Shown here: piece after piece, positions 25,384-48,569 of the stretch
Layout: each line of letters begins with the position of its first letter
Position numbering within the stretch: position 1 is the first letter of the stretch
Origin: a virus
Direction: 5' to 3' (one strand)
Length of the DNA: 55,946 nucleotides
Virus record (IMG/VR): IMGVR_UViG_3300050504_000274
Position numbers and translations under genes: made by a program
Notes under the pieces: model-generated
The model's input: only the letters and a program-made list of their open reading frames with translations
Told to the model about the DNA's origin: nothing
The model's database searches: none

Positions 25384-25956
25384 TCAGAAGCCCTCGAGCC
25401 CGAGCTGGCTCGCGCGCTTCTTGAAGGCGAAGCGGGCGGTGCGAGGGTCGTGCGCCCAGACCTTCGCGATCGCGGGCGCGTCGAGGGCGACCCGGTGGTC
25501 GACCCAGCCCACGCCCTCCGGCAGGAGGTAGTGCGCCTCCAGGTGGAGCGCGCGGGTGTCGTAGACCTTCACGCGCGGCCAGATCCACGAGTCCTCCGGC
25601 GGGAGCCCGAGGTCCTCGCGCACCGCGGCCTGGATCCTCGCCTCCCAGGCCTCGTGCTCCGGAAGATCGATCTTGAACGGGCTCGGGAAGTCGCCGCAGT
25701 ACGCCTCGTGGGCGTCGTGCAGGAGCGCGCACTGCTGCACCACCAGCGGCTCGCCGGCCGCCTCGGCCAGCACCGAGACCAGCACCGAGTGCTCGGCCAC
25801 GGAGTAGAACTCGCGGACGTGCCCGAGGTAGCGGCAGATCATCGACAGCGCGTGCGTGACGTCCTCGCGCTCGAAGTTGCAGTGCGAGTCGAGCGAGAAG
25901 AACTTCCGGCCGCTGACCGTCGTGATGTAGCCGTGCTTCTTCGCGGGGTGCTCCAT
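25384..25956 (-). CDS. HD-domain phosphohydrolase (5'-deoxynucleotidase/dNTPase-like)
   Basis: SVAEHSVLV (His) and ALLHDAHEAYCGDFPSP (HD...D). Start set to ATG 25956 (MEHPAKK), which shares one base with the upstream stop. Confidence 0.8.
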   Translation of the reverse strand: MEHPAKKHGYITTVSGRKFFSLDSHCNFEREDVTHALSMICRYLGHVREFYSVAEHSVLVSVLAEAAGEPLVVQQCALLHDAHEAYCGDFPSPFKIDLPEHEAWEARIQAAVREDLGLPPEDSWIWPRVKVYDTRALHLEAHYLLPEGVGWVDHRVALDAPAIAKVWAHDPRTARFAFKKRASQLGLEGF

Positions 25957-26360
25957 CAGTCGTCCGATCCGCACGGCGTGGCGTCGTCGCGCACGTCGAA
26001 GTCGTCGGGCTGCTCGGCCTGGGGCGGCGGCATCAGGTCGCCGCGCATGGTGCTCAGGTACACGTGGTTGCCGGCCTCCGCCCGGACCGTGAGGCCGCCG
26101 AGCGAGCTGCGGACCTCGAGCCCCAGCGCCCCGTCCGCGCCGCGACCGATCCTCACGTGAATCTTGTGGGCGCGCAGATACTTGTCTTCGCCCAAGTCGA
26201 ACACCACGTCGGCGTTCTTGTGTATGTCGAACGAGGAGAGCGAGTCGTCCTCCTCGCTCCTCACGATCACGTCGATCGACTCCTCGGTCCTCGGCAATCT
26301 CCGCTCGCCCATCGCAGTCGCCCCCAGCCGCGCGTAGCGGCCCGTAGTCGTCAGGTCCAT
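25956..26360 (-). CDS. Hypothetical acidic protein (134 aa)
   Basis: MDLTTTGRYARLGATAMGERRLPRTEESIDVIVRSEEDD... ATGA overlap with the lipoprotein gene stop. Confidence 0.65.
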   Translation of the reverse strand: MDLTTTGRYARLGATAMGERRLPRTEESIDVIVRSEEDDSLSSFDIHKNADVVFDLGEDKYLRAHKIHVRIGRGADGALGLEVRSSLGGLTVRAEAGNHVYLSTMRGDLMPPPQAEQPDDFDVRDDATPCGSDD

Positions 26361-27176: not shown

Positions 27177-28051
27177 TCGTTGCTGTACTCCCCTTCGACG
27201 AAGTTGAAAGGATGTTTGAACGCCTCGTGCTGGAGGGCGCGAGGGCTCCGCACCGTCTGCACCCGGTTGTCGTCTGCGCCGCTGCGGTGGCACTCGATCC
27301 CGGCGACCATTACGGGTCCTGTGTAGTGCTTCGCCCTCGCCCCGCTCGGCAGTCGGCCCTTCACGCGGAGCTGCTCCACGAGCGCGTCGTATGCCCGCTC
27401 GCCGAGGATCATGGTGTCCACGCCGTGGCCCATCCTCTCCATCTGCTCCTTGGCGTCGAAGATATCCTGCATCACGTCCCTGCCGGTGGGGAACGACCAG
27501 CACAGTTCTCGCGATCCTGAGACTAGTGTGTCCATTCCAGACTTCCACGTCGCGTCATCCACATGCGCGGCCTCGTCCAGGAAGATCGAGTCGCCGGAGC
27601 TGAACTTCTCGACGACCTTCCTCTCGCCCTTAGGGCTGAGCAGGTCTCGGACCTCCCAACCCTGCTCCCTCGCCTTCTCGAGCACCGGCGACATAGCGCG
27701 CAGCGCCTCGCGCTCGATCCGCTCGCGCTCCTGCCGCGCTATGATCGCCCTCTGGTCCGCGGGCAGAGTCTCGTCGTCCAGGAGGGCAGTCGTGGGGTTT
27801 CCGCTGACGTTCCGCCCGGAGCGCACGTCCTCCGCGTACTCGGTGAAGGTCACCCTCGAGCCGTCGGCGCCGGTCAGCGTCACGACGGCCGCGTCCACGC
27901 GCTGGTCGCCGACGTGCGGGCCGAGCGCGGCGCGGGCCGCCTCCGATGCCTCGCGCGCGCCGGCGACGTCGCCGGACCACAGCGGGTAGCGCGAGCCCAC
28001 CTCGCGGCCGGCGCGGTCGCGCAGCACGGCGTTGGCGCGGAAGACCGTCAC
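27173..28051 (-). CDS. Hypothetical protein (292 aa) with a Walker-B/terminase-like FLDEAAH...SFPTG segment
   Basis: GDSIFLDEAAHVDDATWKSGMDTLVSGSRELCWSFPTG resembles the Walker B plus coupling motif of terminase-type ATPases, but I found no Walker A. Confidence 0.75.
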   Translation of the reverse strand: MTVFRANAVLRDRAGREVGSRYPLWSGDVAGAREASEAARAALGPHVGDQRVDAAVVTLTGADGSRVTFTEYAEDVRSGRNVSGNPTTALLDDETLPADQRAIIARQERERIEREALRAMSPVLEKAREQGWEVRDLLSPKGERKVVEKFSSGDSIFLDEAAHVDDATWKSGMDTLVSGSRELCWSFPTGRDVMQDIFDAKEQMERMGHGVDTMILGERAYDALVEQLRVKGRLPSGARAKHYTGPVMVAGIECHRSGADDNRVQTVRSPRALQHEAFKHPFNFVEGEYSNE

Positions 28052-28239
28052 AGCTCGCCCAGCTTCCTGGCCAGCTCGTCCACGGCGTCCTCGCGCTGCT
28101 TCCGCGCGACGTGCTCGGGGACCAGCCAGCCGAGGCGCAGGGCCTCCCAGCCGCCGCGCAGGAGCAGGCCGACCAGCACGAACGCCAGCCCGACCGTCCA
28201 GAACGCGAGGCCGAACAAGACCTTGGCCGCGAGCCGCAC
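28048..28239 (-). CDS. Small single-pass membrane protein (63 aa)
   Basis: GTG 28239 with GGGGAGGA upstream. VRLAAKVLFGLAFWTVGLAFVLVGLLL..., then a charged tail. Confidence 0.5.
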   Translation of the reverse strand: MRLAAKVLFGLAFWTVGLAFVLVGLLLRGGWEALRLGWLVPEHVARKQREDAVDELARKLGEL

Positions 28240-28343
28240 TAGAGGTCCTCCCCGTCCATCAGGATGATGATGAGGATGATGAGCCCGAAGAGCCCGACCC
28301 TGCGCCACACGCGCACGCCGGGAGGAGCGTCGAAGTCGTTCAC
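28239..28343 (-). CDS. 34-aa single-TM micropeptide
   Basis: My translation is VNDFDAPPGVRVWRRVGLFGLIILIIILMDGEDL. AGGAGA upstream, GTGA overlap with the UDG-like stop, TAGTG overlap with the next start. Confidence 0.45.
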   Translation of the reverse strand: MNDFDAPPGVRVWRRVGLFGLIILIIILMDGEDL

Positions 28344-28897
28344 TGCTTATCTCCTGTGGTGTGCGAGCCGCCGCCCGCCGGCATAGCGGGGCCGACCGTG
28401 ACCGGCCGGCTCTGCTGCGGCGGCTCCCACACGTCCGTCGCGAGCCGGTTGAAGAACCGGCGCGCTGCTCTCCTGTTGTTCTGGTCGTTCCACCAGCGGT
28501 TGCGGCCTGAGGGGTGCGGGCACACGTAGGCCCGCGTCCCCCTGCTCCGGGCCGAGGTCGCGCAGCCGTAGAACGCGCAGCGGAAGAACGGCGCCGAGCC
28601 GACCTCTCGGAAGGAGTCCGCGACCCTGCGCCCCAGCAGCACCACGTGCTCGTACCTGGCCCAGTCGTCGACCACCATCGTCGTCGCCGCGTCGCGGGCC
28701 GACACCGGCCCCCACCGCTCCTGCGGGTGCTCGAACAGGTTCGTCCGGTCGGCCAGTCGCAGGAACTCCTCGCGCGACCAGCCGGTGTACCCGAGCAGCC
28801 TGCGTCCCGCGTCGCAGTAGTCCGGGTGGAGCGGGAACCCGACGTTCGAGATCGTCGGCGCCTCGCCCACGAAGAGCACGCGGGCGCTCACCCGCAC
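28340..28897 (-). CDS. Uracil-DNA glycosylase superfamily protein (family 4/5-like)
   Basis: VLFVGEAP (motif A) and CPHPSGRN (motif B). The start is GTG at either 28897 or 28891. Confidence 0.8.
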   Translation of the reverse strand: MRVSARVLFVGEAPTISNVGFPLHPDYCDAGRRLLGYTGWSREEFLRLADRTNLFEHPQERWGPVSARDAATTMVVDDWARYEHVVLLGRRVADSFREVGSAPFFRCAFYGCATSARSRGTRAYVCPHPSGRNRWWNDQNNRRAARRFFNRLATDVWEPPQQSRPVTVGPAMPAGGGSHTTGDKQ

Positions 28898-28998
28898 CTC
28901 CCGCGCGCCTCCGCGGCGAGCCTGCGCCTGCGGCCCTTCGAGCCGGCGCGCACGCGCAGCGGCACGAGGCGGCCGTTGACCCTCCTGCGGCGCCTCAT
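28888..28998 (-). CDS. Possible 36-aa arginine-rich peptide (MRRRRRVNGRLVPLRVRAGSKGRRRRLAAEARGRCG)
   Basis: It exactly bridges two genes with overlapping stop/start codons at both ends. Its composition could equally be GC-bias noise. Confidence 0.25.
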   Translation of the reverse strand: MRRRRRVNGRLVPLRVRAGSKGRRRRLAAEARGRCG

Positions 28999-29315
28999 CA
29001 CCAGATCCACCCTCGCGCCCTGGCGATCGAGCGCTCCGCTGGCGTCAGCATTCCCACGCGCCGCGCGCGCGTCTTCGGCGTCTGCCGCCGCGTGAAGTGG
29101 CTCGGCCCGAGCTTGCGCTTGACGACGAACTCGTCGAAGGTCAGGCGCACCGCGTCCCGGCGCGTCGGCCGCCTGGCCGACTGCACCTCGCGCGGGGGCA
29201 TCTTCATCCCGCGCCCGGCCTGAGCCATCGCGCCGACCTGCGCCGCGTCCCTAGACGTCCCGCGGAGCAGTCGCTCCCGGACCCAGCGCTCGATCCCGCC
29301 GAATATCCCGAACAT
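28998..29315 (-). CDS. Hypothetical basic protein (105 aa)
   Basis: MFGIFGGIERWVRERLLRG... First gene after the 29.36-kb promoter. Confidence 0.6.
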   Translation of the reverse strand: MFGIFGGIERWVRERLLRGTSRDAAQVGAMAQAGRGMKMPPREVQSARRPTRRDAVRLTFDEFVVKRKLGPSHFTRRQTPKTRARRVGMLTPAERSIARARGWIW

Positions 29316-29343
29316 AGGCGTGCAGTCCTCCTGTCCAGCAGTC

Positions 29344-29371
29344 AGTGTACAGCGTCTCGTCCGGAAGTCAA
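29344..29371 (-). promoter_or_regulatory. Sigma70-like promoter TTGACT-N16-TACACT
   Basis: -35 at 29366-29371 and -10 at 29344-29349 (minus sense), in the 85-bp gap between the lipoprotein gene and the 29315 gene. Confidence 0.5.
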
Positions 29372-29400
29372 GTCCGCGTCCTAGGATTCAGTCCCCGGCC

Positions 29401-29703
29401 CTAGTTCGAGGTCACCCTGTCGACGCAGGCGACCGTGCCGTCCGGCCTCACCCTGTAGACCAGCAGCCCGCCCCTAGGGGCTGCGGGTCGCGGCCGGAGG
29501 TACACCACCAGGGAGACGTTGCCGTCCCTGTCCGCGACGCGGACCACCCGGTCCGTAGGGAACGCCAGCGGCACCTCGGCCTCCGTGCGCGGCGGGCGCC
29601 CGAGCCCCCTCGGCCCGGCGCACCCCAGGCAGCACGCCGCGATCAGGGCCATCTCCAGGAACATTATCCCCACGTACACGCTCAGTCGCTTGCTGGTCGT
29701 CAC
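29401..29703 (-). CDS. Predicted lipoprotein (100 aa)
   Basis: VTTSKRLSVYVGIMFLEMALIAACCLGCAGP is a signal peptide plus the lipobox LGC. GTG start with GTGA overlap on the GGDEF gene stop. Confidence 0.7.
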   Translation of the reverse strand: MTTSKRLSVYVGIMFLEMALIAACCLGCAGPRGLGRPPRTEAEVPLAFPTDRVVRVADRDGNVSLVVYLRPRPAAPRGGLLVYRVRPDGTVACVDRVTSN

Positions 29704-30275
29704 AGGATCCTCCTCTGCGCTATCTCACGCAGGCGCAGCCACGCCGCCGAGAAGGTCGGCAGCGTCCTCGCCCGCTTCTCCTCCTTGTCCAGGTACATCG
29801 CCGCGTCCGCGGCCTCCACGTCCGCGCCGAGGCCGGCGCTCGCCGACACCCGGCCGTCGCGCGAGCGCCAGCGGCGCACCAGGTCGCGCACGCGGCGCGC
29901 CCCGGCCCGGCTGTCGATGCGCACGACGAACTCGTCCCCGCCCTCGCGGGCGAGCGTCACGTCCGAGCCCCGAGTCTGCTCGGAGAGGAAGTGCGCGAAC
30001 TCCCGCAGCACCTCGTCCCCGTAGGCGTGCCCGAGCGGGTGCGCGTCCTGCGCCGCCTTGAACCCGTCCAGGTCGACGAAGACGAACCAGCTCTGGCCGT
30101 CGCGCCGCGTCCGGCGGTCTAGTCCGCGCCGGTTGTAGAGTCCCGTGAGAGAGTCCACCTCCGCGTCCCGCGCCCGCGCCTCGGCCTCGCGCTCCAGGTC
30201 GGGGAGCCGCGCCAGCCGCTCGCGCAGCGTCGCGTACTTCGTCTCGGTCAGGTCGGACCAGGCGGGAGAGTCCAA
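29700..30275 (-). CDS. Stand-alone GGDEF-domain protein (putative diguanylate cyclase), 191 aa
   Basis: DSLTGLYNRRG, FVDLDGFK, GHAYGDEVLREFA, REGGDEFVV (checked against the DNA at 29921-29960) and SASAG...AADAAMYLDK. A ~40-aa coiled-coil N-terminus and no sensor domain. Confidence 0.9.
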   Translation of the reverse strand: MDSPAWSDLTETKYATLRERLARLPDLEREAEARARDAEVDSLTGLYNRRGLDRRTRRDGQSWFVFVDLDGFKAAQDAHPLGHAYGDEVLREFAHFLSEQTRGSDVTLAREGGDEFVVRIDSRAGARRVRDLVRRWRSRDGRVSASAGLGADVEAADAAMYLDKEEKRARTLPTFSAAWLRLREIAQRRIL

Positions 30276-30277
30276 GC

Positions 30278-30484
30278 CTAGAGTCCTTCCCGCAGGTAGC
30301 GCCGAGGAACTCGGACCACGCCGAGGGGCTCCACGTGCAGGATGTAGCCGGGCACGGGAGACTCCTCCTCCGCGATCCGACGGACCTCCTCCAGGTTCCA
30401 GGGATAGAACTCCTCGAACGACCCGTCGATCGTGTCGACCCTGAACCTCTGCTCGATCGTCGCGCGTCCTGCTCGCGAATCCAC
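30278..30484 (-). CDS. Hypothetical protein (68 aa)
   Basis: MDSRAGRATIEQRFRVDTIDGSFEEFYPWNLEEVRRIAEEE..., non-biased composition. Confidence 0.6.
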   Translation of the reverse strand: MDSRAGRATIEQRFRVDTIDGSFEEFYPWNLEEVRRIAEEESPVPGYILHVEPLGVVRVPRRYLREGL

Positions 30485-30486
30485 GC

Positions 30487-30819
30487 CTACAGTCCTCCCG
30501 GGGGAACGCCGTCGGGCACCGCCACGCCGTCGAAGGGGCCGGCGCGCCCGCGGTCCTCCTTCTCGACCTGCTCCCCCAGCGCGTCCGCGCAGAGGAGGTA
30601 GTTCGCCTGCTGGAGCAGGAGCGCGTCGCGCCGGAGCGCGAGGAACGCGGCCCGCAACTCCGGCGACACCTCCGACCCCGCGACCAGCTCGAGCGCGCGG
30701 GCCTGGCTGAGCCGGGCCGTGCGCTCCTCGATCTCCCGCGCCCGCCGGCGCAGGACCTCGGCCCTCGCCGAGAGTCCCTCCGAGTAGTCCATCGGCTCGC
30801 CCGTGAGTATCAGTATCAA
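30487..30819 (-). CDS. Hypothetical helical protein (110 aa; start uncertain, alternative ATG 30792)
   Basis: ...MDYSEGLSARAEVLRRRAREIEERTARLSQARALE... Confidence 0.55.
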   Translation of the reverse strand: MILILTGEPMDYSEGLSARAEVLRRRAREIEERTARLSQARALELVAGSEVSPELRAAFLALRRDALLLQQANYLLCADALGEQVEKEDRGRAGPFDGVAVPDGVPPGGL

Positions 30820-30897
30820 GGCGTTTCCTCGTCCGCGACCCGAGTCCCTAGTCCGCGTCGGCGAACGTCGTCCGGCGGTCGAGTCCTGGCAGACAGT

Positions 30898-31104
30898 CTA
30901 CACCTCCCCCAGCCCTAGGGCAAGTCCGGAGGCGGGGAAGTAGTCGGGGACGCCGAAGAACTCAGCCTCCCAGCGCCAGGAGGCCCGGGCCTCCTCCGGA
31001 GACAGCCGCAGGGCGCGGTAGTACAGGACGGGGACCGGCCCCACCATGTCAGCGAGCGCGAGCGCGCGCCGGTCGAAGTAGTCGGAGAGGTAGGACAAGT
31101 CCAC
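30898..31104 (-). CDS. Hypothetical protein (68 aa)
   Basis: GTG 31104 overlaps the upstream TAG (TAGTG). VDLSYLSDYFDRRALALADMVGPVPVLYYRALRLSPEE... Confidence 0.5.
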   Translation of the reverse strand: MDLSYLSDYFDRRALALADMVGPVPVLYYRALRLSPEEARASWRWEAEFFGVPDYFPASGLALGLGEV

Positions 31105-31340
31105 TAGCGCGCTCCGCAGGGGCACGGGCGCCCGCTCATCTTGACGGCCGCGGACGTCGCCGAGGTCCTGGACATGTAGCGGGAGGACCCCCCGCCTAGG
31201 CACGTGGCGCAGACCACGCGGAAGTCCCCCGGCGCCCGCTTGCGCACGGTCCGCGTGCCGCACGTGAACGGCCGCGAGTCCGGGTCCTCGCGTAGCCGCG
31301 CCTCGTCGGGCGCCCGGCGCCAGCCTTGTAGGTCGCTCAC
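31104..31340 (-). CDS. Hypothetical Cys-rich protein (78 aa)
   Basis: GTGA overlap at 31337-31340. ...FTCGTRTVRKRAPGDFRVVCATC...PCPC. Confidence 0.4.
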   Translation of the reverse strand: MSDLQGWRRAPDEARLREDPDSRPFTCGTRTVRKRAPGDFRVVCATCLGGGSSRYMSRTSATSAAVKMSGRPCPCGAR

Positions 31341-31618
31341 GGCCCGTACCTCGCGGCCGATCCGAGCTGGTCGGACGGGGCGCGGCTCGAGTCTATCCAG
31401 CTCGAGGCCCGAGGGTCCACCTCGCGGAGGTAGCACAGCCAACGGTCCTCGCTCTGCTCCGCGGCTCGCGCGCCGGCGCGCCCGAGGATCGCGGCTCGCC
31501 CCGGGCAGGAGCACTGCCCTACTCTCCAGACCACTGCGCACCCCGCCGCGTGGCCGTAGGCCGTCGCGGCCCGGTAGCTGAACCTCGCGGAGTTGACTGC
31601 TACTTCCGAATTGTCCAT
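31337..31618 (-). CDS. Hypothetical protein (93 aa)
   Basis: ATG 31618. MDNSEVAVNSARFSYRAATAYGHAAGCAVVWRVGQCSCPG... Confidence 0.5.
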   Translation of the reverse strand: MDNSEVAVNSARFSYRAATAYGHAAGCAVVWRVGQCSCPGRAAILGRAGARAAEQSEDRWLCYLREVDPRASSWIDSSRAPSDQLGSAARYGP

Positions 31619-31643
31619 CGTCCTAGTCCTGCGGCCGAGTCTC

Positions 31644-31874
31644 TCAGGACAGTCCGCGCGGCCGCGCGCAGTCCGCCCTTGGTAGGTGGGGCACGGGCGC
31701 CAACCCGTGCCCCGGGAAGGAAGCCCCGGCCGGGTATGATCCGACCCGACCGGCGCGCCCATTGTGTTGAATCAGCCGGAGCGGGTACGCGCGGCACCGA
31801 TTGAGCGCGCGCAGGTACGCCAGCGGCAGCCGGCCCCAGCGGTCCGCGCTCCTCCCGCCGCGCAGGTAGATCAT
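31644..31874 (-). CDS. Hypothetical protein (76 aa)
   Basis: ATGA overlap at 31871-31874. MIYLRGGRSADRWGRLPLAYLRALNRC... The second half is compositionally weak. Confidence 0.4.
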   Translation of the reverse strand: MIYLRGGRSADRWGRLPLAYLRALNRCRAYPLRLIQHNGRAGRVGSYPAGASFPGHGLAPVPHLPRADCARPRGLS

Positions 31875-32155
31875 CGATTGCGCTCCCGCCGATTCTCGGC
31901 CTCGCTGCCGCACAATATCCAGAGGGCTCGCCCGCGGATCTCCTCCTCGCTCGCTGTCTCCAGGTCTGCCCAGGTTCCCCAGTGCGCGAGCATCCTCCGC
32001 ACCTCGGGAGTAGGCATGATCCACTCCAGCTCGCCGGACGCGAGCCAGGAGGCTACGTCTCCGTCGCACGGTCCAGGGTGCGAGCACTCTTCGATTGCAT
32101 CCTCCGGAACTCGGACGACCACCGCTCCGCTGTCTCCGTCGATTAGGTCGATCAC
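31871..32155 (-). CDS. Hypothetical acidic protein (94 aa)
   Basis: GTGA overlap at 32152-32155. VIDLIDGDSGAVVVRVPEDAIEECSHPGPCDGDVASWLASGELEW... Confidence 0.6.
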   Translation of the reverse strand: MIDLIDGDSGAVVVRVPEDAIEECSHPGPCDGDVASWLASGELEWIMPTPEVRRMLAHWGTWADLETASEEEIRGRALWILCGSEAENRRERNR

Positions 32156-32592
32156 GCTCGCACCTCCTGAGCCTGTCCGGCTCGGCACGTGTACTGCGCC
32201 TCCTGCCCTCGGTTCGCCCGGAGGCGCACGTACATGCCCGGCCCTGCCCCGGTCCCGTAGTAGCGCACCCCCTCGGCAGTGACGGCCCGAACGAAGTAGC
32301 GCCGGGTCCCGCCGCGGCCGTGCCCCTGGAACCCGACCGCGGCGGACCGCAGGGAGGTCACGCTCGCGACGTCCCCGCCGCTCCACGTGTGGATCCTCCT
32401 CCTCCCGTCGCCGGACAGGTAGAGGAACTGAGGCTCCCCGCGCGCCATTTGCGCGCGAGTCCGCGCGTCGCAGCACGAGTAGCACGCGGTGCGCCCGGTC
32501 CGGGAGTCCCGACCGAAGCCGGTCCCGCCGGAGCCATCCTCCTGCGGAGTGCTGGGGTGGCCGCAGTCGCACAAGGCTAGGTAGGTAATCAC
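32152..32592 (-). CDS. Hypothetical Cys-cluster (zinc-binding-like) protein (146 aa)
   Basis: GTGA overlap at 32589-32592. LCDCGH...ACYSCCD. Confidence 0.6.
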   Translation of the reverse strand: MITYLALCDCGHPSTPQEDGSGGTGFGRDSRTGRTACYSCCDARTRAQMARGEPQFLYLSGDGRRRIHTWSGGDVASVTSLRSAAVGFQGHGRGGTRRYFVRAVTAEGVRYYGTGAGPGMYVRLRANRGQEAQYTCRAGQAQEVRA

Positions 32593-33512
32593 GACCCCAC
32601 CTCCTGGACGGCCGGCGCCTCGTCCAGCGCGCGGGCCAGCTCCTCGATTCTCTCCCGCGTGAACGTGTGGCAGCCCGCGCGCACCTCGTCCGCTCCGATG
32701 CTGTCTACCTGGAAGGGACCCACCCGTAGAGTCTCCCCGTTCCGGCGCCACTGCTCCCCGCGCGTCCAGACCGAGCGCACAAACGCCAGCGCGCGCCGCG
32801 CGTGCTCGATCGGGACCCGCGCGCCGCGGGACGTCACCACCTCGGCCCCGTGCACCGCGAGGTACGCCGAGCCTTTTTCGTCCACGTGGTAGCTGTAGGG
32901 GCAGTCCGCGCGCGTCCCCGCCCTCCACTCCTCGAAGGCCTCGGACTGCTCCCTCCGCCGCGCGCTCGCCTTCGCGCGCTCGCTCTTGAGCCACGCCCCC
33001 CGCGCCGCCCGAGCCTCGGCCACGAGGTCCTGGAGGTCCGCCCGCGCGCGCCTCCCGAGGGTGGACAGCACGCCGAAGAAGCGCGCGTACTCCACGGCCT
33101 CCCGCTGTAGGCGCAGGGCCGCGTCCGCGTGCGCTCCGCGCGTGTAGTCCCTCCTCGCCCGCGTCGCCTTGAGCGCCTGCTCGACAGCTCGCGCGAGCAG
33201 CCTCCGCGCGTTCCGCGTGTGGTCCGCGGGACAGTGCGGCTCCACGTTCGGGACCTCGAACGCGCGGACGTTCGGCAGCCCGTCCACCGCGTCCCGCACC
33301 TCGCGGTAGTGCGCCGCGGTGGACACGCTCCGCGATAGGCTGTCTACCTGGAGCAGGACCGCGCGCCGGCCGCGGTGCGAGGTGAAGCGCGCGAGTACCC
33401 AGTGGTGCCCGTGCGAGTAGATCGAGGCGCCCTCGTAGAACATCCGCGAGCCTCGGCCGCTCGCTCGATGGTCCTGCTGCGCCCAGCGGTGCGCTACCTG
33501 TGCGTGGTTCAT
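32589..33512 (-). CDS. Hypothetical protein (307 aa)
   Basis: MNHAQVAHRWAQQDHRASGRGSRMFYEGASIYSHGHHWVLARF... RBS AAGGAAGGAAG upstream. Confidence 0.8.
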   Translation of the reverse strand: MNHAQVAHRWAQQDHRASGRGSRMFYEGASIYSHGHHWVLARFTSHRGRRAVLLQVDSLSRSVSTAAHYREVRDAVDGLPNVRAFEVPNVEPHCPADHTRNARRLLARAVEQALKATRARRDYTRGAHADAALRLQREAVEYARFFGVLSTLGRRARADLQDLVAEARAARGAWLKSERAKASARRREQSEAFEEWRAGTRADCPYSYHVDEKGSAYLAVHGAEVVTSRGARVPIEHARRALAFVRSVWTRGEQWRRNGETLRVGPFQVDSIGADEVRAGCHTFTRERIEELARALDEAPAVQEVGS

Positions 33513-34171: not shown

Positions 34172-34223
34172 GGCTTCTGGCTTCCTTCCTTTGGTGTCTC
34201 GTGGCTTCCGACCACGGTAGCCG

Positions 34224-34252
34224 AGTATATCGGCCGACCGAACCTTTGTCCA
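34224..34252 (-). promoter_or_regulatory. Leftward early promoter TGGACA-N17-TATACT
   Basis: -35 at 34247-34252 and -10 at 34224-34229 (minus sense), at the left edge of the noncoding hub. Confidence 0.55.
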
Positions 34253-34342
34253 GCGGAAAAAGCCGGGAATCGCCTAATTGATCTCCTAGCAATAGGTTAG
34301 AGTCTCGGAATCGGGACGTTGTTACCGATAGTCGGACTGCCC

Positions 34343-34408
34343 GGCCCGAGGTGCGGGCGCACCTAAGTAGAGCTAGGACAGGAGCTTGCGCCGGTAGGCC
34401 CGAGGTGC
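34343..34408. repeat. 12-bp exact direct repeat ggcccgaggtgc (34343-34354, 34397-34408) overlapping a 7+2+7 palindrome aggtgcgggcgcacct (34349-34364)
   Basis: Read directly in the noncoding hub. Confidence 0.8.
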
Positions 34409-34447
34409 CCAGCCTTTCCTATGTCCCGCTATACACGTACCCTTATA

Positions 34448-34614
34448 CTACTTTCGGGATATCTCGAAAACAGTATAAGGGGTCGCGCACACGTTAGAGG
34501 GGGACCGTTTTGCAGGAGTCTCGATCCTAGGCCTCCGACTACTATCCGTTGTGGTCCTACTTTCGGGACCTCCGAGCCTAATGTTACGCATAGCGCAGAA
34601 TTCGGATATCTCGA
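34448..34614. repeat. Dispersed direct repeats in the noncoding hub
   Basis: ctactttcggga occurs at 34448 and 34557. ggatatctcga occurs at 34457 and 34604, inside an imperfect palindrome around GATATC. Both are exact matches read by eye. Further partial matches: aggggtc, gggac(c)(g)ttttgca. Confidence 0.75.
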
Positions 34615-34804
34615 TCTACGTACAGGGGTCCGTTCTACGGGACTTTTGCACCGTTCTTACCTAATTGGTCGTCCTAAGTCCATGCAGGAGGCCTACTTAG
34701 GCGTGTGTTGCATTAGTGGAATAATGTAAGTTTTCAGTCAAAACCCACCTAAATCGAATTGATTCTAGATCAAACCCCTAGATCGAGGGCTTGTCGCACC
34801 CTAA

Positions 34805-34842
34805 ATGCCATTATGGCAGGGCCTCGGCTGCCATAATGGCAG
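34805..34842. promoter_or_regulatory. Pair of operator-like palindromes ATGCCATTATGGCAG and CTGCCATAATGGCAG; together they form a 13-bp perfect inverted repeat
   Basis: gccattatggcag (34807-34819) and ctgccataatggc (28-40) are reverse complements separated by 8 nt. Each half is itself a CTGCC-N5-GGCAG-type palindrome. Centres are 23 bp apart. Confidence 0.55.
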
Positions 34843-34990
34843 GCCATTTGTTACGATGTCGTAACACATTGATGTGAGATCAATTCGAAGGCGAGGCCTC
34901 GGGCAGGCTCCTGGGAAATTGATCGCGCGCCAAACCCCTCCACGTGCGCGATTCCGGGCAGGGAGACTGCCCCTCCTCGCGTCGCGGGAC

Positions 34991-35078
34991 CCAGAATTTC
35001 GGGCTGGGAAATTCGGCCGGGAAAAATCTGGGCAGAAAATCCGGGCCTAGGAATTCGGCCGGAGGAATTCAGGCTAGG
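34991..35078. repeat. Six tandem degenerate ~14-bp units (GRAAWWTYC-GGSC), iteron/phased A-tract-like
   Basis: GAAWT cores start at 34994, 35008, 35021, 35035, 35051 and 35065, giving spacings of 14, 13, 14, 16 and 14. Confidence 0.7.
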
Positions 35079-35139
35079 AGAGCGGCGGCCGCACGCTCCG
35101 GCACACGTGCACGTTCCCGCACGGAATCCCGGAATCCGC

Positions 35140-35168
35140 TTGACCCTGCCGTTTTGGCAGCGTACGCT
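35140..35168 (+). promoter_or_regulatory. Rightward promoter TTGACC-N17-TACGCT with CTGCCGTTTTGGCAG filling the spacer
   Basis: -35 at 35140-35145, palindrome at 35146-35160, -10 at 35163-35168. The first possible start codon (TTG 35174) is 6 nt after the -10. Confidence 0.5.
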
Positions 35169-35173
35169 GGGGG

Positions 35174-36259
35174 TTGCGGCGCGCCCGAGCGCAGCACCCA
35201 ACGCGAGCACCCCCGGCCGTGGCCCAGAGGCACCAGGTAGACGTCGCGACCCCGGCGCTGGACCGCTTCCTGTCCGAGCCCGCGGCCCGCCAGCTCCTCG
35301 GCGACGAGCTGGGCCGGGTGCTGTCCGAGGCGTTCCTGCCGCCCGGCTACGAGGCCCAGTACCCGCGCCAGGAGGACCTCCGCTGGCGCGTCCTGGTCTG
35401 CTGGCGCCTCGCTCGCGGGATCGCGCTGGTGCTCGGCCTGTGCGCCGAGGACGAGCCGCTCGAGCGCGCCGCGGACGCCGAGGACTACGCCGAGAGCCCG
35501 TGGACCTTCCCGACCGCGCCGCGGCTCTCCCCGAGCCAGCAGCAGCTCGTCCGGCTCGGCGAGGCGACCGACATGCACCGGCTCGCCGCCGGGGGCGTGA
35601 CGCTGCTGCCGCCGGCCGACCCGGCCCTCGCCCGGGCCTGGTGCCCGGTCGCCGCGGTGCTCGCCGAGGAGCTGGGCGTCGCCGCCTCGGAGGGCGGGGC
35701 GGCCGGGCTGCGCGGCCTGCTCGACCCGAGGACCTGCGGCCACGCGGGCGTGACCCCGAAGATGGTGGTGGGCCTGGAGGAGCTGCTCGTCGACGAGGCG
35801 GCCCGGGCGATCCTGGAGTGCGGCGAGCGCGCGACGGTGGAGCACCTGCGCGGCCGCTACGGCCTGGCCCGCCGGGAGGCCGCGGCGCTGGTGCGCCTGG
35901 CGCGCGCCGACGCGATGCGCGGGGGCTCCTCCTCGGTTGAGGAGGACCGCGCCCTGATGGTGCTGATGCTGAAGGACCTCGCGGCCCGCACCAAGGAGGA
36001 GATGAACACCGACAAGGAGCTGCGCGTGCTGAAGGAGCTGGCCCGCGTGCAGGGCCTCACGCGCTCGGAGCCCGAGGACCTGGGGCGGCTCTTCGCCGGC
36101 GTGATCGCGGGGGTGGCCGAGCGGCAGGACCGCCGGCTGCTAGAGAGCCAGAGGAGGATCGTCGACGCGGACGCGGTGGACGTGACCCCCGAGCCCGCGG
36201 TAGACTCGGGGGACGAGGACCCGGCGGCCCTCGCGGAGTTCGACAGGGAGGAGACGTGA
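35174..36259 (+). CDS. Hypothetical protein, possible small terminase subunit (361 aa; start uncertain)
   Basis: First gene of the rightward block. The C-terminal KELRVLKELARVQGLTRSEPEDL resembles the ...ALELLGKHLGLF tail of some TerS families. The TTG start would be leaderless; GTG 35219 is an alternative. Confidence 0.6.
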   Translation: MRRARAQHPTRAPPAVAQRHQVDVATPALDRFLSEPAARQLLGDELGRVLSEAFLPPGYEAQYPRQEDLRWRVLVCWRLARGIALVLGLCAEDEPLERAADAEDYAESPWTFPTAPRLSPSQQQLVRLGEATDMHRLAAGGVTLLPPADPALARAWCPVAAVLAEELGVAASEGGAAGLRGLLDPRTCGHAGVTPKMVVGLEELLVDEAARAILECGERATVEHLRGRYGLARREAAALVRLARADAMRGGSSSVEEDRALMVLMLKDLAARTKEEMNTDKELRVLKELARVQGLTRSEPEDLGRLFAGVIAGVAERQDRRLLESQRRIVDADAVDVTPEPAVDSGDEDPAALAEFDREET

Positions 36260-36798
36260 TGCTGCGATGGGCGAGATCAGGCGGAAGACGTGAGAGCGCT
36301 GCGACCCGGAGGCGGCCCGTGAGGCGCGCCGCGCTGAGCGCGATCGGCTTCGCGCTCGACAGAGCGCTATGCGCGCTGCTCTTCTGGGGCGTCGTCCTGG
36401 CGAACCTGGAGGGCTGCGCGGCGGTGGGCCGCGGCCTGAAGTTCGTCGGTGAGAGGCTCATCCAGATCGGGGGAGGCGCCGTCGTCGGCTTCCTCGCCTG
36501 GGTCCTCTACCCGGTCGGCTGGGCCGGCGTCGCGCTCGCGACGTTCGTGGCGAGCGTGTTCTCCGCGCTCGCCGCCCCGCCGACCGTCGTGGACAAGAAC
36601 GGCCACGGAGGCCCAGACCGCCTGACGTGGGTGCTCGTCGGCGCGGGCGGCGCGCTGCTGCTCCGCGCGTGGGCGCACTACCCGGAGGTGTTCCGGCGCG
36701 CGTGGGCGCTCGTCCGCGGCGGCGCGAGGGCGTTCCTCGGCGGGGTCGAGCGGAGGCTGCCAGAGCTGCCGCCGGAGTCCAAGGAGGTCGGCAGGTGA
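36256..36798 (+). CDS. Multi-pass membrane protein (180 aa)
   Basis: At least four hydrophobic stretches (ALCALLFWGVVLANL, GGAVVGFLAWVLYPVGWAGVALATFVASVFSALA, LTWVLVGAGGALLL). The start overlaps the upstream stop. Confidence 0.7.
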   Translation: MMLRWARSGGRRESAATRRRPVRRAALSAIGFALDRALCALLFWGVVLANLEGCAAVGRGLKFVGERLIQIGGGAVVGFLAWVLYPVGWAGVALATFVASVFSALAAPPTVVDKNGHGGPDRLTWVLVGAGGALLLRAWAHYPEVFRRAWALVRGGARAFLGGVERRLPELPPESKEVGR

Positions 36799-37777: not shown

Positions 37778-39256
37778 ATGTCCACGTTCGCGAGGAAATT
37801 CACGCCCCTGTACGAGCGCTGGCGCTCCAGCATCCACGACTTCTTCGACACGGGCCTCAACTTCGGCAAGGAGGCGCCCGGGAGCGGCCCGACGTGGCAG
37901 CAGAGGCAGCTCCTAGACGTGATCCAGCTCGAGAGCGAGCTTCCGGTCGAGAAGAGGCTCAAGCGGGTGGCCGTCCGGAGCGGCCAGGGGCCGGGGAAGA
38001 CGTCCATGAGCGGCGGAGTCGCCCTCTGGCGCTGCCTCCGCTACCCGGACGCCCTCTGCGTGGTCACCGCGCCGAACATGCGGCAGTGCAAGCAGTTCAT
38101 CGACGAGATCGACCGCATCCTGAAGGGCGCGCACCCCTTCCTGCGCGGGTTCGTCGAGTGCTACGGCACGAAGGTCGTCGTCAACGGCTCGCGGACGTGG
38201 CAGATCCGCTCCGCGACGGCCTCGCGGCCGCAGAACCTCCAGGGGATCCACGAGAAGCGCCTGACGTTCATCGCCGACGAGGCCTCTGGCGTGGCCCGGT
38301 CGATCATGGAGACGATCCAGGGCACGCTGTCGAACCCGGACGCGCTCTTCCTGGCGATCGGGAACCCCAACACGACCGACTGCAAGTTCCACGAGTGCTT
38401 CACCACGCAGGCCGACCTGTGGCACCGGCTCGCGTGGAACGCCGAGGACACGGCGCGCGACTACCCGCACATCGTCTCGCCGAGCCGCAACCGCGCGCTC
38501 GAGCTGGAGTACGGCCGCGACAGCGACGTGTACCGCGTACGGGTCCTCGGGGAGTTCCCGCGCAGCGACCCGAACTCGATCATGGCGCTCGAGGACCTGA
38601 TCGCCTGTACCAAGACGACCATGTACGGGTGCGCGACGATCACGGACATCCTCCCGGTGAACAAGGCCATCGGCATCGACTACGCGCGCTACGGCGGCGA
38701 CGAGTCGGTCGTGGTCCGGCGCAGCGGGCTGGCCGTCGTGGACTTCAAGGTCTTCGTGAAGCGCGACCCGCGCGAGGTCACCGACTACGCCTTCCGCCAG
38801 CAGTACGACGCCGGCTGGAAGAACGACGACTGCTGGTACGTCCCCGACGCGGGCGGCATGGGCCAGGGCATCGTGCACTCGTTCTGGGAGGGCGGCAAGC
38901 AGGTGCACGAGTTCCACACGCAGGCCGTCGCGAGCGACAGCTCGATGTTCGCCGACGCCTACAGCGAGGCCTGGTGGAACCTGCGCAACCTCGTGCAGGA
39001 GCGCATCGTCCACCTCCCTAACGACCCGCGCCTGCTGAAGCAGCTCTCGACGCGGCAATACTACACCGACCGCAAGGGGCGCCTGAAGGTGGAGTCGAAG
39101 GACGAGTGGCGCGAGCGCACCGAGATCGACGAGTCGCCCGACCGCGCCGACGCGGTGGTGATGGCTTTCTATAGCCGGATGGGCCGCGACGGTAAGGTCG
39201 TCCAGATGCAGCAGAAGGCGTACAAGCTCGGGTCCCGGGCGAGGAGGAGCCGGTGA
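37778..39256 (+). CDS. terL: Terminase large subunit
   Basis: Walker A SGQGPGKTS, Walker B LTFIADEASG, and nuclease-domain acidic motifs IGIDYARYGGDES and SPDRADAVVMAF. Confidence 0.9.
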   Translation: MSTFARKFTPLYERWRSSIHDFFDTGLNFGKEAPGSGPTWQQRQLLDVIQLESELPVEKRLKRVAVRSGQGPGKTSMSGGVALWRCLRYPDALCVVTAPNMRQCKQFIDEIDRILKGAHPFLRGFVECYGTKVVVNGSRTWQIRSATASRPQNLQGIHEKRLTFIADEASGVARSIMETIQGTLSNPDALFLAIGNPNTTDCKFHECFTTQADLWHRLAWNAEDTARDYPHIVSPSRNRALELEYGRDSDVYRVRVLGEFPRSDPNSIMALEDLIACTKTTMYGCATITDILPVNKAIGIDYARYGGDESVVVRRSGLAVVDFKVFVKRDPREVTDYAFRQQYDAGWKNDDCWYVPDAGGMGQGIVHSFWEGGKQVHEFHTQAVASDSSMFADAYSEAWWNLRNLVQERIVHLPNDPRLLKQLSTRQYYTDRKGRLKVESKDEWRERTEIDESPDRADAVVMAFYSRMGRDGKVVQMQQKAYKLGSRARRSR

Positions 39257-43310: not shown

Positions 43311-43822
43311 CGGAGCCACCTCTCCCTGTCGCCGAAGCGGTACGCGGCGAAGAGCCGCTCGAAGCCGAGGCCGAGCGCCCAGCCGCACTGCGCGAAGCCG
43401 CTGGCCGACGTCGCGTGCCAGAGCGTGTTCTTCCGCCCGCCGACGATCATCACGTGGCCCGGGCCGCCGTCGGTCGTGCCGACGACGAGCACGTCGCCGG
43501 GCTGGTAGAGCCAGTGCCGCAGGCGCTCGGCGGGCCGGTACAGCCGGCGGAGCGCGGCGACCGCGCGGTAGGCCGCCTGCGGGTTGTGGAAGGCCGTGTC
43601 GTGCGGCATCGAGGAGTCCTGCCGGCGCGATCGCCCGTCCATCTCGTCGACCACGCCGAACACCGCCCCGATGCAGTCGCCCTCGACGCCGCGCATCGAG
43701 CCGCCGCTCCGGTACGGGGTGCGGTCCCACGACGCGAGCACGCGCTCGAGCCTCGCCTGCGCCGGCAGCAGCTCGGTCGGCATGGGCTCCCAGCGCGCCC
43801 CTATGATGGCGTGGGTCCTCAC
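43307..43822 (-). CDS. NlpC/P60-family cysteine peptidase (lambda gpK C-terminal/GTA g14-like)
   Basis: GVEGDCIGAVFGV (catalytic Cys) and GHVMIVGG (His). GTG 43822 with GTGA overlap. Confidence 0.75.
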   Translation of the reverse strand: MRTHAIIGARWEPMPTELLPAQARLERVLASWDRTPYRSGGSMRGVEGDCIGAVFGVVDEMDGRSRRQDSSMPHDTAFHNPQAAYRAVAALRRLYRPAERLRHWLYQPGDVLVVGTTDGGPGHVMIVGGRKNTLWHATSASGFAQCGWALGLGFERLFAAYRFGDRERWLR

Positions 43823-44679
43823 GCCGGGTTCTCGAAGAGGGGGTTGTACGGGAGCATGGCGTAGCCGAGGCCGGCGAAGTGCTGCTCGTTGTCCCAGACG
43901 GCGCGACAGTCCTGGATCGTCTTGTGGCAGCCGGGCACGAACTTGATAGACGTCGCCCCGGCGAGGAGCCACGAGTTCGGCGGCCGGCGGCGCAGCACGA
44001 ACTTGGTCGGGTCGGTCAGCACCCAGATGTGCACGCCGATCTGGAGGCCGTCCTTCTCGAGGTAGCCGCGCTCCCAGAAGCGGTCGACGTTGCCGCCCGG
44101 CGACGTCGGGGACGTCAGCGCCGCGTTAGGCGTCGTGATCGTGACCTCCTTGCCGTCCATCACCGCGATCTGGCCGAACTCCTGGAAGGAGGTGATGTTG
44201 AGCTGGCAGAGCGGCCCGAAGAGGCGGGCGTAGCAGTGGTGGTTGCACTGGAGGCCCATCGGGATGTCCAGGCGCGACTTGGCCGGCAGCGCGAAGAGCG
44301 CCACGGAGTTCCCGCGGCCCTGGAAGTTCTTCACCGAGCGCACGATTCGCCCCTTGTAGAGGACGCGGCGCGACCCGCTCTGGCCGATGAACGTCGGGAC
44401 GGTCACCTCGTCGACCTGGAGGAACATCGGCGAGTGCGGCAGCCCGCTCGCGACCTCCTCGGTGAAGTCGTCGATCGGGAGCATCAGCTTCAGCTCGCTC
44501 TTGTCGAACGTGCCGCTGTTGTCGGGGATCTCGACCGAGAGGCCGGGCGTGCTGACGTGCCCCTCCACGTCGGAGGCGAAGTCGGTGTAGCGCTCGAACG
44601 TGGGCGACAGCGGGTCTCCGTGGCGGATCACCACGAGGAGGTAGCTGTTTTTCTCCGGGCTCTGGTTGGCGTTCGTCAT
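43819..44679 (-). CDS. Tail hub protein, DUF2163 / BR0599-like (lambda gpL / GTA g13 analogue)
   Basis: C-terminal FVPGCHKTIQDCRAVWDNEQHFAGLGYAMLPYNP matches the PGC-x4-C...F-G-[FG]-P signature I know for BR0599-type proteins. Confidence 0.75.
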   Translation of the reverse strand: MTNANQSPEKNSYLLVVIRHGDPLSPTFERYTDFASDVEGHVSTPGLSVEIPDNSGTFDKSELKLMLPIDDFTEEVASGLPHSPMFLQVDEVTVPTFIGQSGSRRVLYKGRIVRSVKNFQGRGNSVALFALPAKSRLDIPMGLQCNHHCYARLFGPLCQLNITSFQEFGQIAVMDGKEVTITTPNAALTSPTSPGGNVDRFWERGYLEKDGLQIGVHIWVLTDPTKFVLRRRPPNSWLLAGATSIKFVPGCHKTIQDCRAVWDNEQHFAGLGYAMLPYNPLFENPA

Positions 44680-44681
44680 GT

Positions 44682-46361: not shown

Positions 46362-46383
46362 GGTGCCTCCGCTCGCCCCTGGA

Positions 46384-47526: not shown

Positions 47527-48569
47527 CAGGCCACCTCCACCCCGATCTGACCGCCGTTGATGTCGCTGACGTCCCAGGCGACCGAGGTCACCGGATTCAC
47601 GTCGAGCACCACGTCGAACTCGTCGAACGTCGTGCTGGCGACGGTGACCGTGGCGGCATCGCCGTCCGTGCCCCCGTCGTCGCGGTACTTGATCTTCACG
47701 TTCCTGGAACCCGCGGCCTGCATCGCGAGCTGGGCCTCGATCTGCACCGCGGCGATCGCGCCGTCGATGTGCGCGAGGTCCGTCATCGCGTAGAGGTCCT
47801 TCTGGCCGGACGTGTCGGAGCTGTTCGTGCCGCCGGGGCCGGACTCGTCGGGCGCGGCGTTGCCGGGATCCTGGACGTTGTTGAAGTTCGAGCCGCTGCC
47901 GGCGTCGTTCGTCCACTGGGTCGAGGCGCCCGCGCCGTTGATCGTGCACCCCTCGACGATGAAGTCGCCGAGGAAGTCGTTGTTCACGGAGCCGGTGCCG
48001 TCCTTGAAGTTGATGTCGTCGAGCAGGAACGTCGTCGACACGTTCGAGGTGAAGCGCAGGGCGAAGATGTCGGCCTGGTTCGAGCCGGCGTTCGCCGTGT
48101 TCTGCCCGGTCGCGGAGGTCACGAACACCTCGTCGTGTCGCAGCTCGTAGGCCCCGGTCGACGTGTTGACCGTGACCTTCAGCTCGAAGTGGTGCCAGTT
48201 CCCGTAGGCGTAGGCGGCCGACGTCGTGAAGAGCGTGGTCGACCCGCGCTTGAGCCGGATCTCGAAGCTGCCGGCGTTGTTCACGAACTCGACGTGGACC
48301 TGCTCCGCCGAGGCCTTCTCGATGTAGAGGCCCTGGTTGCCGGAGTTCAGGCCGGTCTGCTGGGACGTGATCCGCACCGCGAAGGCGAGGATCCACGTGT
48401 CGGCGAGCCCGAGGCTCTTCGTCACGGCGACGGTCGAGAGGATCCCGGCCGAGTTGCCGAACACGCGGCCGGCCTGCGAGGAGATCGAGCCCGTGAACGT
48501 CGCGTACTTCCTGATGAGCTGGTTGGTGTTCGTGTGAGTCTCCCAGCCCTCCATCCACCGCATCGCCAT
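47526..48569 (-). CDS. Jelly-roll/lectin-like tail protein, paralogue A (347 aa)
   Basis: MAMRWMEGWETH...TGSVNNDFLG...VAWDVSDINGGQIGVEVA. Lies directly after the tape measure gene. Confidence 0.75.
   Translation of the reverse strand: MAMRWMEGWETHTNTNQLIRKYATFTGSISSQAGRVFGNSAGILSTVAVTKSLGLADTWILAFAVRITSQQTGLNSGNQGLYIEKASAEQVHVEFVNNAGSFEIRLKRGSTTLFTTSAAYAYGNWHHFELKVTVNTSTGAYELRHDEVFVTSATGQNTANAGSNQADIFALRFTSNVSTTFLLDDINFKDGTGSVNNDFLGDFIVEGCTINGAGASTQWTNDAGSGSNFNNVQDPGNAAPDESGPGGTNSSDTSGQKDLYAMTDLAHIDGAIAAVQIEAQLAMQAAGSRNVKIKYRDDGGTDGDAATVTVASTTFDEFDVVLDVNPVTSVAWDVSDINGGQIGVEVA

Follow-up and report, generated by a model that had tools for sequence, protein, structure and literature searches.

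Does a phage supply its own second-messenger synthase to the cell it infects, and does the small exported protein encoded right behind that synthase belong to the same device? The question is raised by IMGVR_UViG_3300050504_000274, a 55,946-nucleotide stretch of DNA from an uncultured tailed phage, which we analysed over its whole length and refer to as the window. Two open reading frames (ORFs) on its minus strand, at positions 29401-30275, had been described in a first-pass annotation, made from the sequence alone, as a sensor-less GGDEF-type nucleotide cyclase of 191 residues that is translationally coupled to a lipoprotein of 100 residues. Both ORFs are present on that strand, and both show the pattern of real genes, GC1 > GC2 << GC3 (GC content at the three codon positions; Table 1). 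The identical 191-residue protein is called on 14 metagenome contigs. With a confidence a little better than even, we favour the reading that it is a minimal, catalytically competent diguanylate cyclase that would be expressed early and would reprogramme the host through a surge of cyclic di-GMP (c-di-GMP), with the lipoprotein as a separate accessory.

Domain identity and predicted fold

The 191-residue protein scores 62.8 bits against Pfam PF00990 (cut-off 23.8; expectation value E 4.2e-17) and 67.6 bits against TIGR00254 (cut-off 37.4; E 1e-18). By these profile scores its GGDEF identity is far beyond chance, and it is a bona fide member of PF00990. All motifs quoted by the first-pass annotation were found, namely DSLTGLYNRRG (residues 41-51), DLDGFK (68-73), GDEVLREFA (86-94), GGDEF (112-116) and SAG..ADAAMYLDK (146-164). 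The domain had also been called complete, which it is not: Pfam aligns profile positions 1-105 of 161 only, about 19 residues are gone between GGDEF and the last helix, and the C-terminal GRN motif and the final strand are gone as well.

An AlphaFold2 (AF2) model of the protein, built on 34 homologues, has a mean predicted local distance difference test score (pLDDT) of 90.6. It consists of a 33-residue N-terminal helix (residues 7-39) followed by the elements a1-b1-a2-b2-b3-a3-b4-a4 and an additional C-terminal helix, with the GGDEF motif in the b2-b3 hairpin (strands 106-112 and 115-120). A Foldseek comparison of the model with the PDB yielded 102 matches at E <= 0.001, the top 50 of which were all GGDEF-domain proteins and nearly all diguanylate cyclases. 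The full-length matches were proteins composed of a stalk and a GGDEF domain: SiaD of P. aeruginosa (7e6g), WspR (3bre), the engineered GCN4-WspR (3i5c) and DgcB of C. crescentus, a coiled coil plus GGDEF (6ttr). Alignments to 7e6g, 3i5c and 6ttr span 185-193 columns with E of 1e-11 to 1e-10 and a TMq of up to 0.69 (6ttr). The model and these matches bear out the earlier description of a sensor-less GGDEF domain behind a helix.

SiaD, DgcB and GCN4-WspR share with the phage protein a single N-terminal helix followed by GGDEF, but they are cellular and have a full-length GGDEF domain with Asn at the base contact. By analogy with 6ttr, 7e6g and 3i5c, we infer that the stalk helix serves dimerisation; its approximately 33 residues would pair two copies of the protein, whose two GGDEF domains would then condense two molecules of guanosine triphosphate (GTP) into c-di-GMP. 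The C-terminal amphipathic helix (residues 172-191, LPTFSAAWLRLREIAQRRIL) is limited to the seven closest relatives (P0001-P0007), and the other family members stop a few residues past the YxxK motif.

Active site of the phage family

We compared 34 members of the phage family with 84 cellular cyclase hits. The phage protein has the palm fold, metal Asp, GGDEF hairpin, guanine-contacting Asp and phosphate Lys of the canonical cyclases PleD, WspR and DgcZ. It differs from them in having no sensor domain, Gln in place of PleD Asn335 and no GRN motif or last strand, both of which are present in the cellular cyclases and absent from the phage family, and in four length changes that are fixed in the phage clade relative to the cellular set. 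Helix a1 is 8 residues shorter (20 residues from N(RR) to the metal Asp against 28 in cellular cyclases), as the first-pass annotation had suspected, and two residues are inserted after (N/Q)D (8 from Lys to Gly-His against 6). There is one more residue between RxxD and GG (6 from xxD to GG against 5), and about 19 fewer lie between GGDEF and a4 (44 from GG to the start of the last helix against 63).

Residues D68, K73, Q76, D77, H83, G86, D87, R110, the GGDEF motif and K164 are invariant in the 34 family members. D68, D87 and K164 are equivalent to PleD D327, D344 and K442, respectively, while Q76 and R168 stand at the positions of N335 and Arg446. Both metal-site positions, D68 and D114/E115 (PleD D327 and E370), are kept and invariant. 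The roles of the metal Asp, D344, K442 and other catalytic residues have been described (PMC7288161), and, judged from the alignment, this catalytic residue set is under strong conservation and purifying selection.

The first-pass annotation had left the product open because it could not place the Asp/Ser residue that separates c-di-GMP synthases from Hypr-type cyclic GMP-AMP (cGAMP) synthases. HMMER alignments to solved cyclases place this residue at Asp87. Since Ser replaces PleD Asp344 in Hypr cGAMP synthases (PMC7288161) and Asp87 is invariant in the 34-member family, the protein is predicted not to be an enzyme of the Hypr cGAMP type. The question of the product turns instead on another residue, Gln76, which occupies the guanine-contacting position of PleD Asn335 and is Gln in 34 of 34 phage proteins compared with Asn in 84 of 84 cellular ones.

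Because the base pocket is reshaped by Gln76 and by an AHP-type 2-residue insertion, an active enzyme with a product other than or besides c-di-GMP may be proposed, i.e. another cyclic dinucleotide, a linear pppGpG-type molecule or a mixed-base product, which could disturb cyclic-nucleotide immune signalling. The fixed coupling of Gln to the insertion and the confinement of the clade to phages are consistent with this proposal, as are the S30N and N31S swaps at the nucleobase-recognition residue of Panoptes OptS, a minimal CRISPR polymerase. These swaps switch its adenine/guanine preference, and the authors of that work draw a parallel to the way Cas10 and GGDEF proteins recognise bases through Ser/Asn. 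We nevertheless consider an altered product distinctly unlikely: Asp87, whose equivalent D344 reads the guanine edge, is invariant, the change from Asn to Gln retains the amide group, and no defence or anti-defence model of PADLOC (2023 release, which predates Panoptes) matched the protein.

The absence of an RxxD I-site five residues before GGDEF had been taken as a sign of constitutive activity. The five-residue spacing is indeed absent, but an RxxD-like motif, RGSD, lies six residues upstream in the same a2-b2 loop, one residue farther out, which weakens the conclusion of constitutive activity. The six-residue spacing is common to the whole phage family; D105 is nearly invariant, and Arg at D-3 occurs in about 21 of the 34 members.

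The RGSD motif also bears on a function without catalysis, in which the protein would be a nucleotide-binding module: either a GTP sensor or a binder or sponge of c-di-GMP that acts through this motif and lowers the free c-di-GMP level or relays it to a phage partner. Degenerate GGDEF domains that serve as receptors are known (PMC7288161), D105 is nearly invariant, an Asn held to be essential has been replaced and the C-terminal side of the domain is cut short. However, known receptor types carry a degenerate GG(D/E)EF (PMC7288161), whereas none of the 34 members here departs from GGDEF, the metal Asp or the phosphate Lys, which is hard to explain without catalysis, and the Arg of RxxD occurs in only about 21 of the 34. 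We give this alternative very little credence and retain the diguanylate cyclase as the preferred reading.

A clade restricted to viral contigs

The homologue search returned 34 short proteins (150-211 residues) at E of 1e-116 to 1e-28, followed by a gap to cellular cyclases at E 1e-12. Identity within the family falls to 46%. Many members lie on contigs of 52-70 kb, and the clade is almost confined to viral contigs of 45-70 kb. A pattern scan of IMG/VR identified 18 loci, and a scan of one genome per species (185,579 species) gave a single match, on a 10.5-kb contig binned in a metagenome-assembled genome of Actinomycetota. In a profile search of 1.84 billion representative proteins, 58 clusters were recovered at E <= 1e-30, about 50 of which are short proteins. 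The few long matches are cellular multi-domain PAS-GGDEF-EAL proteins; the very long ones among them (3558 and 2640 residues), considered as polyvalent phage proteins, owe their high score to several domains.

In the wider set of short GGDEF proteins, many have HGDEF or SGDEF instead of GGDEF, and YQD/FQD or ordinary IND base-contact motifs also occur. These variants are found in P0133, P0140, P0146, P0150-P0153, P0156, P0157, P0160, P0163, P0166, P0167, P0171, P0190, P0202 and P0209. By its motifs, the mini-GGDEF clade comprises several active-site variants.

Phage GGDEF genes as a kind are already known; new here are the metagenome-only clade, the pared-down domain and the altered base-contact residue. 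Annotated examples come from Bordetella Vojvodinavirus LK3/CN1 (152 residues), Pseudomonas Yuavirus, Bacillus SP-15 (183 residues) and Bacillus phage G (gp350). In these cultured phages the genes carry a host-interaction annotation, and biofilm is over-produced by lysogens of LK3. Their products resemble the window protein in being phage-encoded, mostly short and sensor-less, with structural matches in BFVD at E of 6e-12 to 3e-8, but the sequence relation to the window clade is remote or undetectable. A tblastn search of 50,697 phage records with the cyclase gave no Bordetella match and only remote canonical GGDEF matches, with coverage of at most 58% (<=41% for matches above 30% identity) and identity below 60%. 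A match to Pseudomonas phage Y11 was rejected as a relative; it is a 542-residue GGDEF protein of the canonical type that has Asn as its base-contact residue and comes from an unverified record. At least seven families in PHROGs contain GGDEF, each of them labelled 'unknown function'.

Expression context

We searched the minus strand between positions 27500 and 36000 (8.5 kb) for sigma-70-like promoters, which resulted in two matches compared with 0.2 expected from shuffles. The first stands at the head of a leftward block of small genes that includes the cyclase and continues into genes for a DUF5906 primase, a PD-(D/E)XK nuclease, a helicase, a ligase and a polymerase. The position of the cyclase between this promoter-like site and the replication genes makes the early role proposed by the first-pass annotation plausible. 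Early expression may reasonably be expected, in that host RNA polymerase would transcribe the cyclase within the first leftward gene block. The second promoter-like site, in the gap behind the lipoprotein gene, suggests that transcription starts anew there for the gene that follows.

The leftward early block is separated by a divergent intergenic region from the rightward genes, which begin at 35174 and run toward the terminase. The first promoter-like site and a terminator-like hairpin lie in this region, and the segment 34001-36000 has the lowest GC content of the window (0.658).

The probable lipoprotein gene and the slot downstream of the cyclase

None of the families in Pfam, PHROGs, PADLOC or NCBIfam matched the 100-residue protein. 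A homologue search with it recovered two clusters only, P0122 (99% identical) and P0123 (66% identity); further copies are present on contigs L005 and L006, and detectable relatives are found only in the closest phages. When aligned, these proteins share a hydrophobic helix at the N-terminus and a single invariant Cys ahead of A/V-G/A-P, and their conserved mature part contains RPAAP-GG. As features of a lipoprotein we took a positive n-region, a hydrophobic h-region and the lipobox [LVI][ASTVI][GAS]C. The lipoboxes of the orthologues are canonical (VSSC in L005, MAGC in L006), in agreement with the earlier assignment, but the signal of the window copy is non-canonical. K5/R6 are followed by a hydrophobic stretch whose core is broken by Glu17. 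The lipobox pattern is matched by IAAC (Cys24), but it is Cys28, within CLGC, that all four orthologues conserve. The orthologue signals make it probable that the protein is a lipoprotein. Its AF2 model (pLDDT 55.6) is unreliable and too low in confidence for a fold comparison.

Small phage lipoproteins such as T5 Llp, phi80/T1 Cor and TP-J34 Ltp block receptors or DNA entry. The window protein would be comparable, by description only, as a small exported phage lipoprotein encoded outside a lysis cassette.

The first-pass annotation had reported that the cyclase stop overlaps the lipoprotein start as GTGA, which we also find, and had suggested a functional pair. Such an overlap is ordinary for these phages, in which 4-nucleotide overlaps occur at 42 of 136 junctions (31%) and 1-nucleotide overlaps at 15 of 136. 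The pair is present in four related contigs, and its junction varies: GTGA in the window, a 1-nucleotide overlap in L006 and L038, and a 4-nucleotide gap in L005.

We then took a census of the gene directly downstream of the cyclase in 20 distinct contigs, which are not independent of each other and do not include L038. The slot holds the lipoprotein family in three contigs, ~100-residue membrane proteins of another family in five, short hydrophobic peptides in two (L007 and L028), a PRA-PH/MazG-type nucleoside triphosphate (NTP) pyrophosphohydrolase in four, a SpoT-like HD_4 protein in one and other genes in five. A profile comparison of the lipoproteins (family A) with the membrane proteins (family B) gave no sign of a relationship (hhalign probability 0.4%). 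Small membrane or exported proteins thus occupy the slot in 10 of 20 contigs against a base rate of 14 in 82 small genes, 7 of these 14 being the same downstream genes, which is suggestive of a preferred slot for such proteins. Because the occupants are non-homologous and the contigs not independent, we hold functional coupling of the cyclase and its downstream gene to be possible, but unproven.

A stronger form of coupling would make the cyclase and the downstream membrane protein or lipoprotein one two-gene module for superinfection exclusion or for abortive exclusion of rival phages, in which either the nucleotide controls the membrane protein, as OptS controls OptE, or the lipoprotein localises or activates the cyclase. 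Such a module could account for the tight GTGA junction with its internal Shine-Dalgarno sequence, the recurrence of the pair in four contigs, the excess of small membrane or exported proteins in the slot and the fact that these belong to several unrelated families. Panoptes likewise couples a minimal palm-domain cyclase with a small membrane protein encoded beside it, and its base-contact residue sets the nucleotide choice. We consider the two-gene module unlikely, however. The overlap is routine and its geometry varies within the pair itself. Conservation of the partner is lacking, half of the contigs fill the slot with a soluble enzyme or some other gene, and the lipoprotein model does not allow a fold comparison. 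Nor does the locus belong to Panoptes: OptS is a bacterial defence protein without a GGDEF motif that makes 2',3'-c-di-AMP, whereas the window protein is a PF00990 member with an intact GGDEF that is encoded on a phage next to an unconserved neighbour and has no match in the PADLOC release named above. The functional pair of the first-pass annotation is therefore weak, given the routine overlaps, a lipoprotein limited to four close relatives and unrelated proteins in the slot elsewhere. Most likely, the lipoprotein is an independent, envelope-acting accessory gene in a variable slot and no obligate partner of the cyclase.

The pyrophosphohydrolases that directly follow the cyclase (E 1e-13 to 1e-16) and the SpoT-like HD_4 protein in the same position (E 5e-17) suggest a module that acts on nucleotide signals or pools. 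These neighbours, in L011, L017, L018, L019 and L029, would fit a module for the takeover of nucleotide signalling.

An Arg-rich protein of 80-105 residues ('VKRKLG.S.FTRR ... LT..E..LAR.RGW') is encoded one or two genes downstream of the mini-GGDEF gene in most relatives, including L013-L016 and L021, and in the window it is the gene behind the second promoter-like site. No protein family matched it. Its motifs were found in six IMG/VR contigs, each of which has the mini-GGDEF gene as well; the protein could simply be inherited together with the cyclase, or it could be a candidate effector.

Proposed role in infection

In the diguanylate cyclase reading, the c-di-GMP surge would reprogramme the infected cell. 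Likely outputs would be a shutdown of motility and pili or other surface and developmental changes controlled by c-di-GMP, as a result of which superinfection would be blocked and the cell kept in a state that favours the phage. Raising c-di-GMP as a phage strategy, which the first-pass annotation had proposed as host behaviour takeover, has a precedent in the YIP peptides of Pseudomonas phages. By activating the host cyclase YfiN, these peptides increase c-di-GMP and impair swimming, swarming and twitching; superinfection exclusion is discussed as a benefit. The proposed outcome, a lytic phage with higher host c-di-GMP, is the same, but YIP are small peptides that act on a host cyclase, whereas the window phage would supply its own enzyme. 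PlzR, an inhibitor of type IV pilus assembly, is induced by c-di-GMP.

Several points weigh against this reading. The Asn335 listed as essential for activity (PMC7288161) is Gln in every member, beside a 2-residue insertion. The Arg446 position is Arg168 here and is not conserved in the family, some members of which stop short of it, and the protein lacks the GRN motif and the last strand at its C-terminus. The RGSD motif may confer product inhibition. Stalk-type cyclases such as SiaD, the closest structural match, have been solved in complex with a protein activator (SiaC for SiaD); a sensor-less cyclase is therefore not proven to be constitutive. Finally, our literature search gave no biochemically characterised phage-encoded cyclase.

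A broader and, in our view, very unlikely possibility is that the whole mini-GGDEF clade has a new nucleotide specificity or product and forms, perhaps together with the membrane proteins of the slot, a phage second-messenger module directed against host immunity or rival phages.

If active, the protein would rank among the smallest diguanylate cyclases in nature, its core comprising ~130 residues besides the stalk helix, and would be direct evidence that lytic-type phages supply their own c-di-GMP synthase beyond manipulating host enzymes. The clade offers a clean test of which GGDEF parts are dispensable and of what the 'essential' Asn335 contributes, and a constitutive cyclase of this small size would be of practical use. 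The recurring membrane-protein or MazG-/SpoT-like hydrolase neighbours hint that the early genes include a module by which the phage takes over host nucleotide signalling.

Phage genome and host

The window is close to a whole genome, as indicated by the identical cyclase on contigs of up to 56.6 kb, and has a GC content of 69%. Genes for a terminase, a portal, a capsid and tail proteins confirm the phage context assumed by the first-pass annotation; a family-A-like DNA polymerase, a helicase, an ATP-dependent DNA ligase and an exonuclease are also encoded. At the DNA level, a search of positions 28000-32000 against 50,697 GenBank phage records detected no relative. No endolysin or lysis cassette was identified among the window proteins scanned.

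Table 1. Features of the window and of related contigs (positions in related contigs follow the contig name)
Feature	Position	Strand	Basis or remark
191-residue GGDEF protein gene	29700-30275	-	TTG start 30273-30275, TGA stop 29700-29702; ORF call, GC3 0.95
Stalk helix at the N-terminus, residues 7-39, putative coiled coil for dimerisation	30159-30257	-	AF2 pLDDT 86-96; Foldseek
Catalytic GGDEF core, residues 40-171	29763-30158	-	AF2 secondary structure and family-invariant residues
Gln76 codon (CAG), PleD Asn335 position, guanine contact	30048-30050	-	34/34 Gln vs 84/84 Asn
Asp87 codon (GAC), PleD Asp344 position	30015-30017	-	HMMER alignments to solved cyclases; family-invariant
R102-G-S-D105, RxxD-like, putative I-site	29961-29972	-	HMMER-aligned to RxxD of 5xgb and 6d9m; a2-b2 loop
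GGDEF motif, residues 112-116 (GGC GGG GAC GAG TTC)	29928-29942	-	Read from sequence; invariant in 34/34 family members
C-terminal amphipathic helix, residues 172-191	29700-29762	-	AF2 helix 174-190
Shine-Dalgarno GAGGAGG for lipoprotein gene, within GGDEF gene end	29709-29715	-	5 nucleotides before GTG; read from sequence
Stop/start overlap GTGA	29700-29703	-	
100-residue exported protein gene, probable lipoprotein	29401-29703	-	GTG start; GC3 0.94; orthologue lipoboxes
Codon of conserved Cys28	29620-29622	-	
Sigma-70-like promoter TTGACT-16-TACACT, in 85-nucleotide gap after lipoprotein gene	29344-29371	-	Consensus match only
Arg-rich protein gene	28998-29315	-	
Arg-rich protein gene in relatives	L005 6016-6336, L006 5938-6186, L007 5958-6248, L008 5877-6125		
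Pyrophosphohydrolase genes right after cyclase	L011 6450-7034, L017 6480-6875, L018 1191-1679, L019 4917-5399		
SpoT-like HD_4 protein gene right after cyclase	L029 4497-4994		
Sigma-70-like promoter TGGACA-17-TATACT, head of leftward early block	34224-34252	-	Consensus match only
Divergent intergenic region	34172-35173		
Terminator-like hairpin	34828-34842	+	
Protein similar to Caulobacter and Brevundimonas phages	32589-33512		
Large terminase gene	37778-39256	+	
Tail proteins	40566-55833	-	
Major capsid protein E	3041-4105	-	
MazZ-like, HD/YfbR-like and UDG-superfamily genes	11376-11939, 25384-25974, 28340-28897	- (all)	
Multi-pass hydrophobic protein	36256-36798	+	No family match, including PHROGs
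Multi-pass hydrophobic protein	8817-9125	-	No family match
138-residue protein	1385-1801	-	phrog_644
Beta-barrel-like and pentapeptide-repeat region	L028 15-551 and 792-1668		

The evidence on the host leans towards a high-GC proteobacterium, which we do not claim. The ligase is 47-49% identical to that of ~55-64 kb siphophages of Pseudomonas, Xanthomonas, Stenotrophomonas, Variovorax, Janthinobacterium and Burkholderia and points to a proteobacterial host. The capsid protein has about 27-30% identity to those of proteobacterial phages, and a further protein about 36% to Caulobacter and Brevundimonas phages (Table 1). Pointing to Actinomycetota are the sole genome-collection match, which lies in an Actinomycetota bin, and the 138-residue protein, which is up to 73% identical in 398 mycobacteriophage records, yet also found in 37 Pseudomonas phage records. 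Neither the terminase nor the DNA polymerase is informative on this point. Contig L028 encodes an outer-membrane beta-barrel-like protein (PF13505, 27.7 bits, under the cut-off of 28.7) and two pentapeptide-repeat proteins; the former is a weak hint of a Gram-negative host for the L028 phage.

Other genes of the window include a protein with a MazZ-like dATP/dGTP diphosphohydrolase N-terminal domain (PF18909, E 4e-19), an HD/YfbR-like protein and a UDG-superfamily protein, a set reminiscent of phages with modified DNA. The MazZ-like and HD genes prompted the idea of a Z-genome, which is unsupported: the adenylosuccinate-synthetase-like PurZ was not among the proteins scanned or the precomputed Pfam calls of the replication block. 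One of the two multi-pass hydrophobic proteins adjoins the presumed small terminase gene on its upstream side. The 138-residue protein matches phrog_644 (E 8e-49), whose function class is unknown, and its conservation is far above that of the rest of the genome, which suggests a widely exchanged gene.

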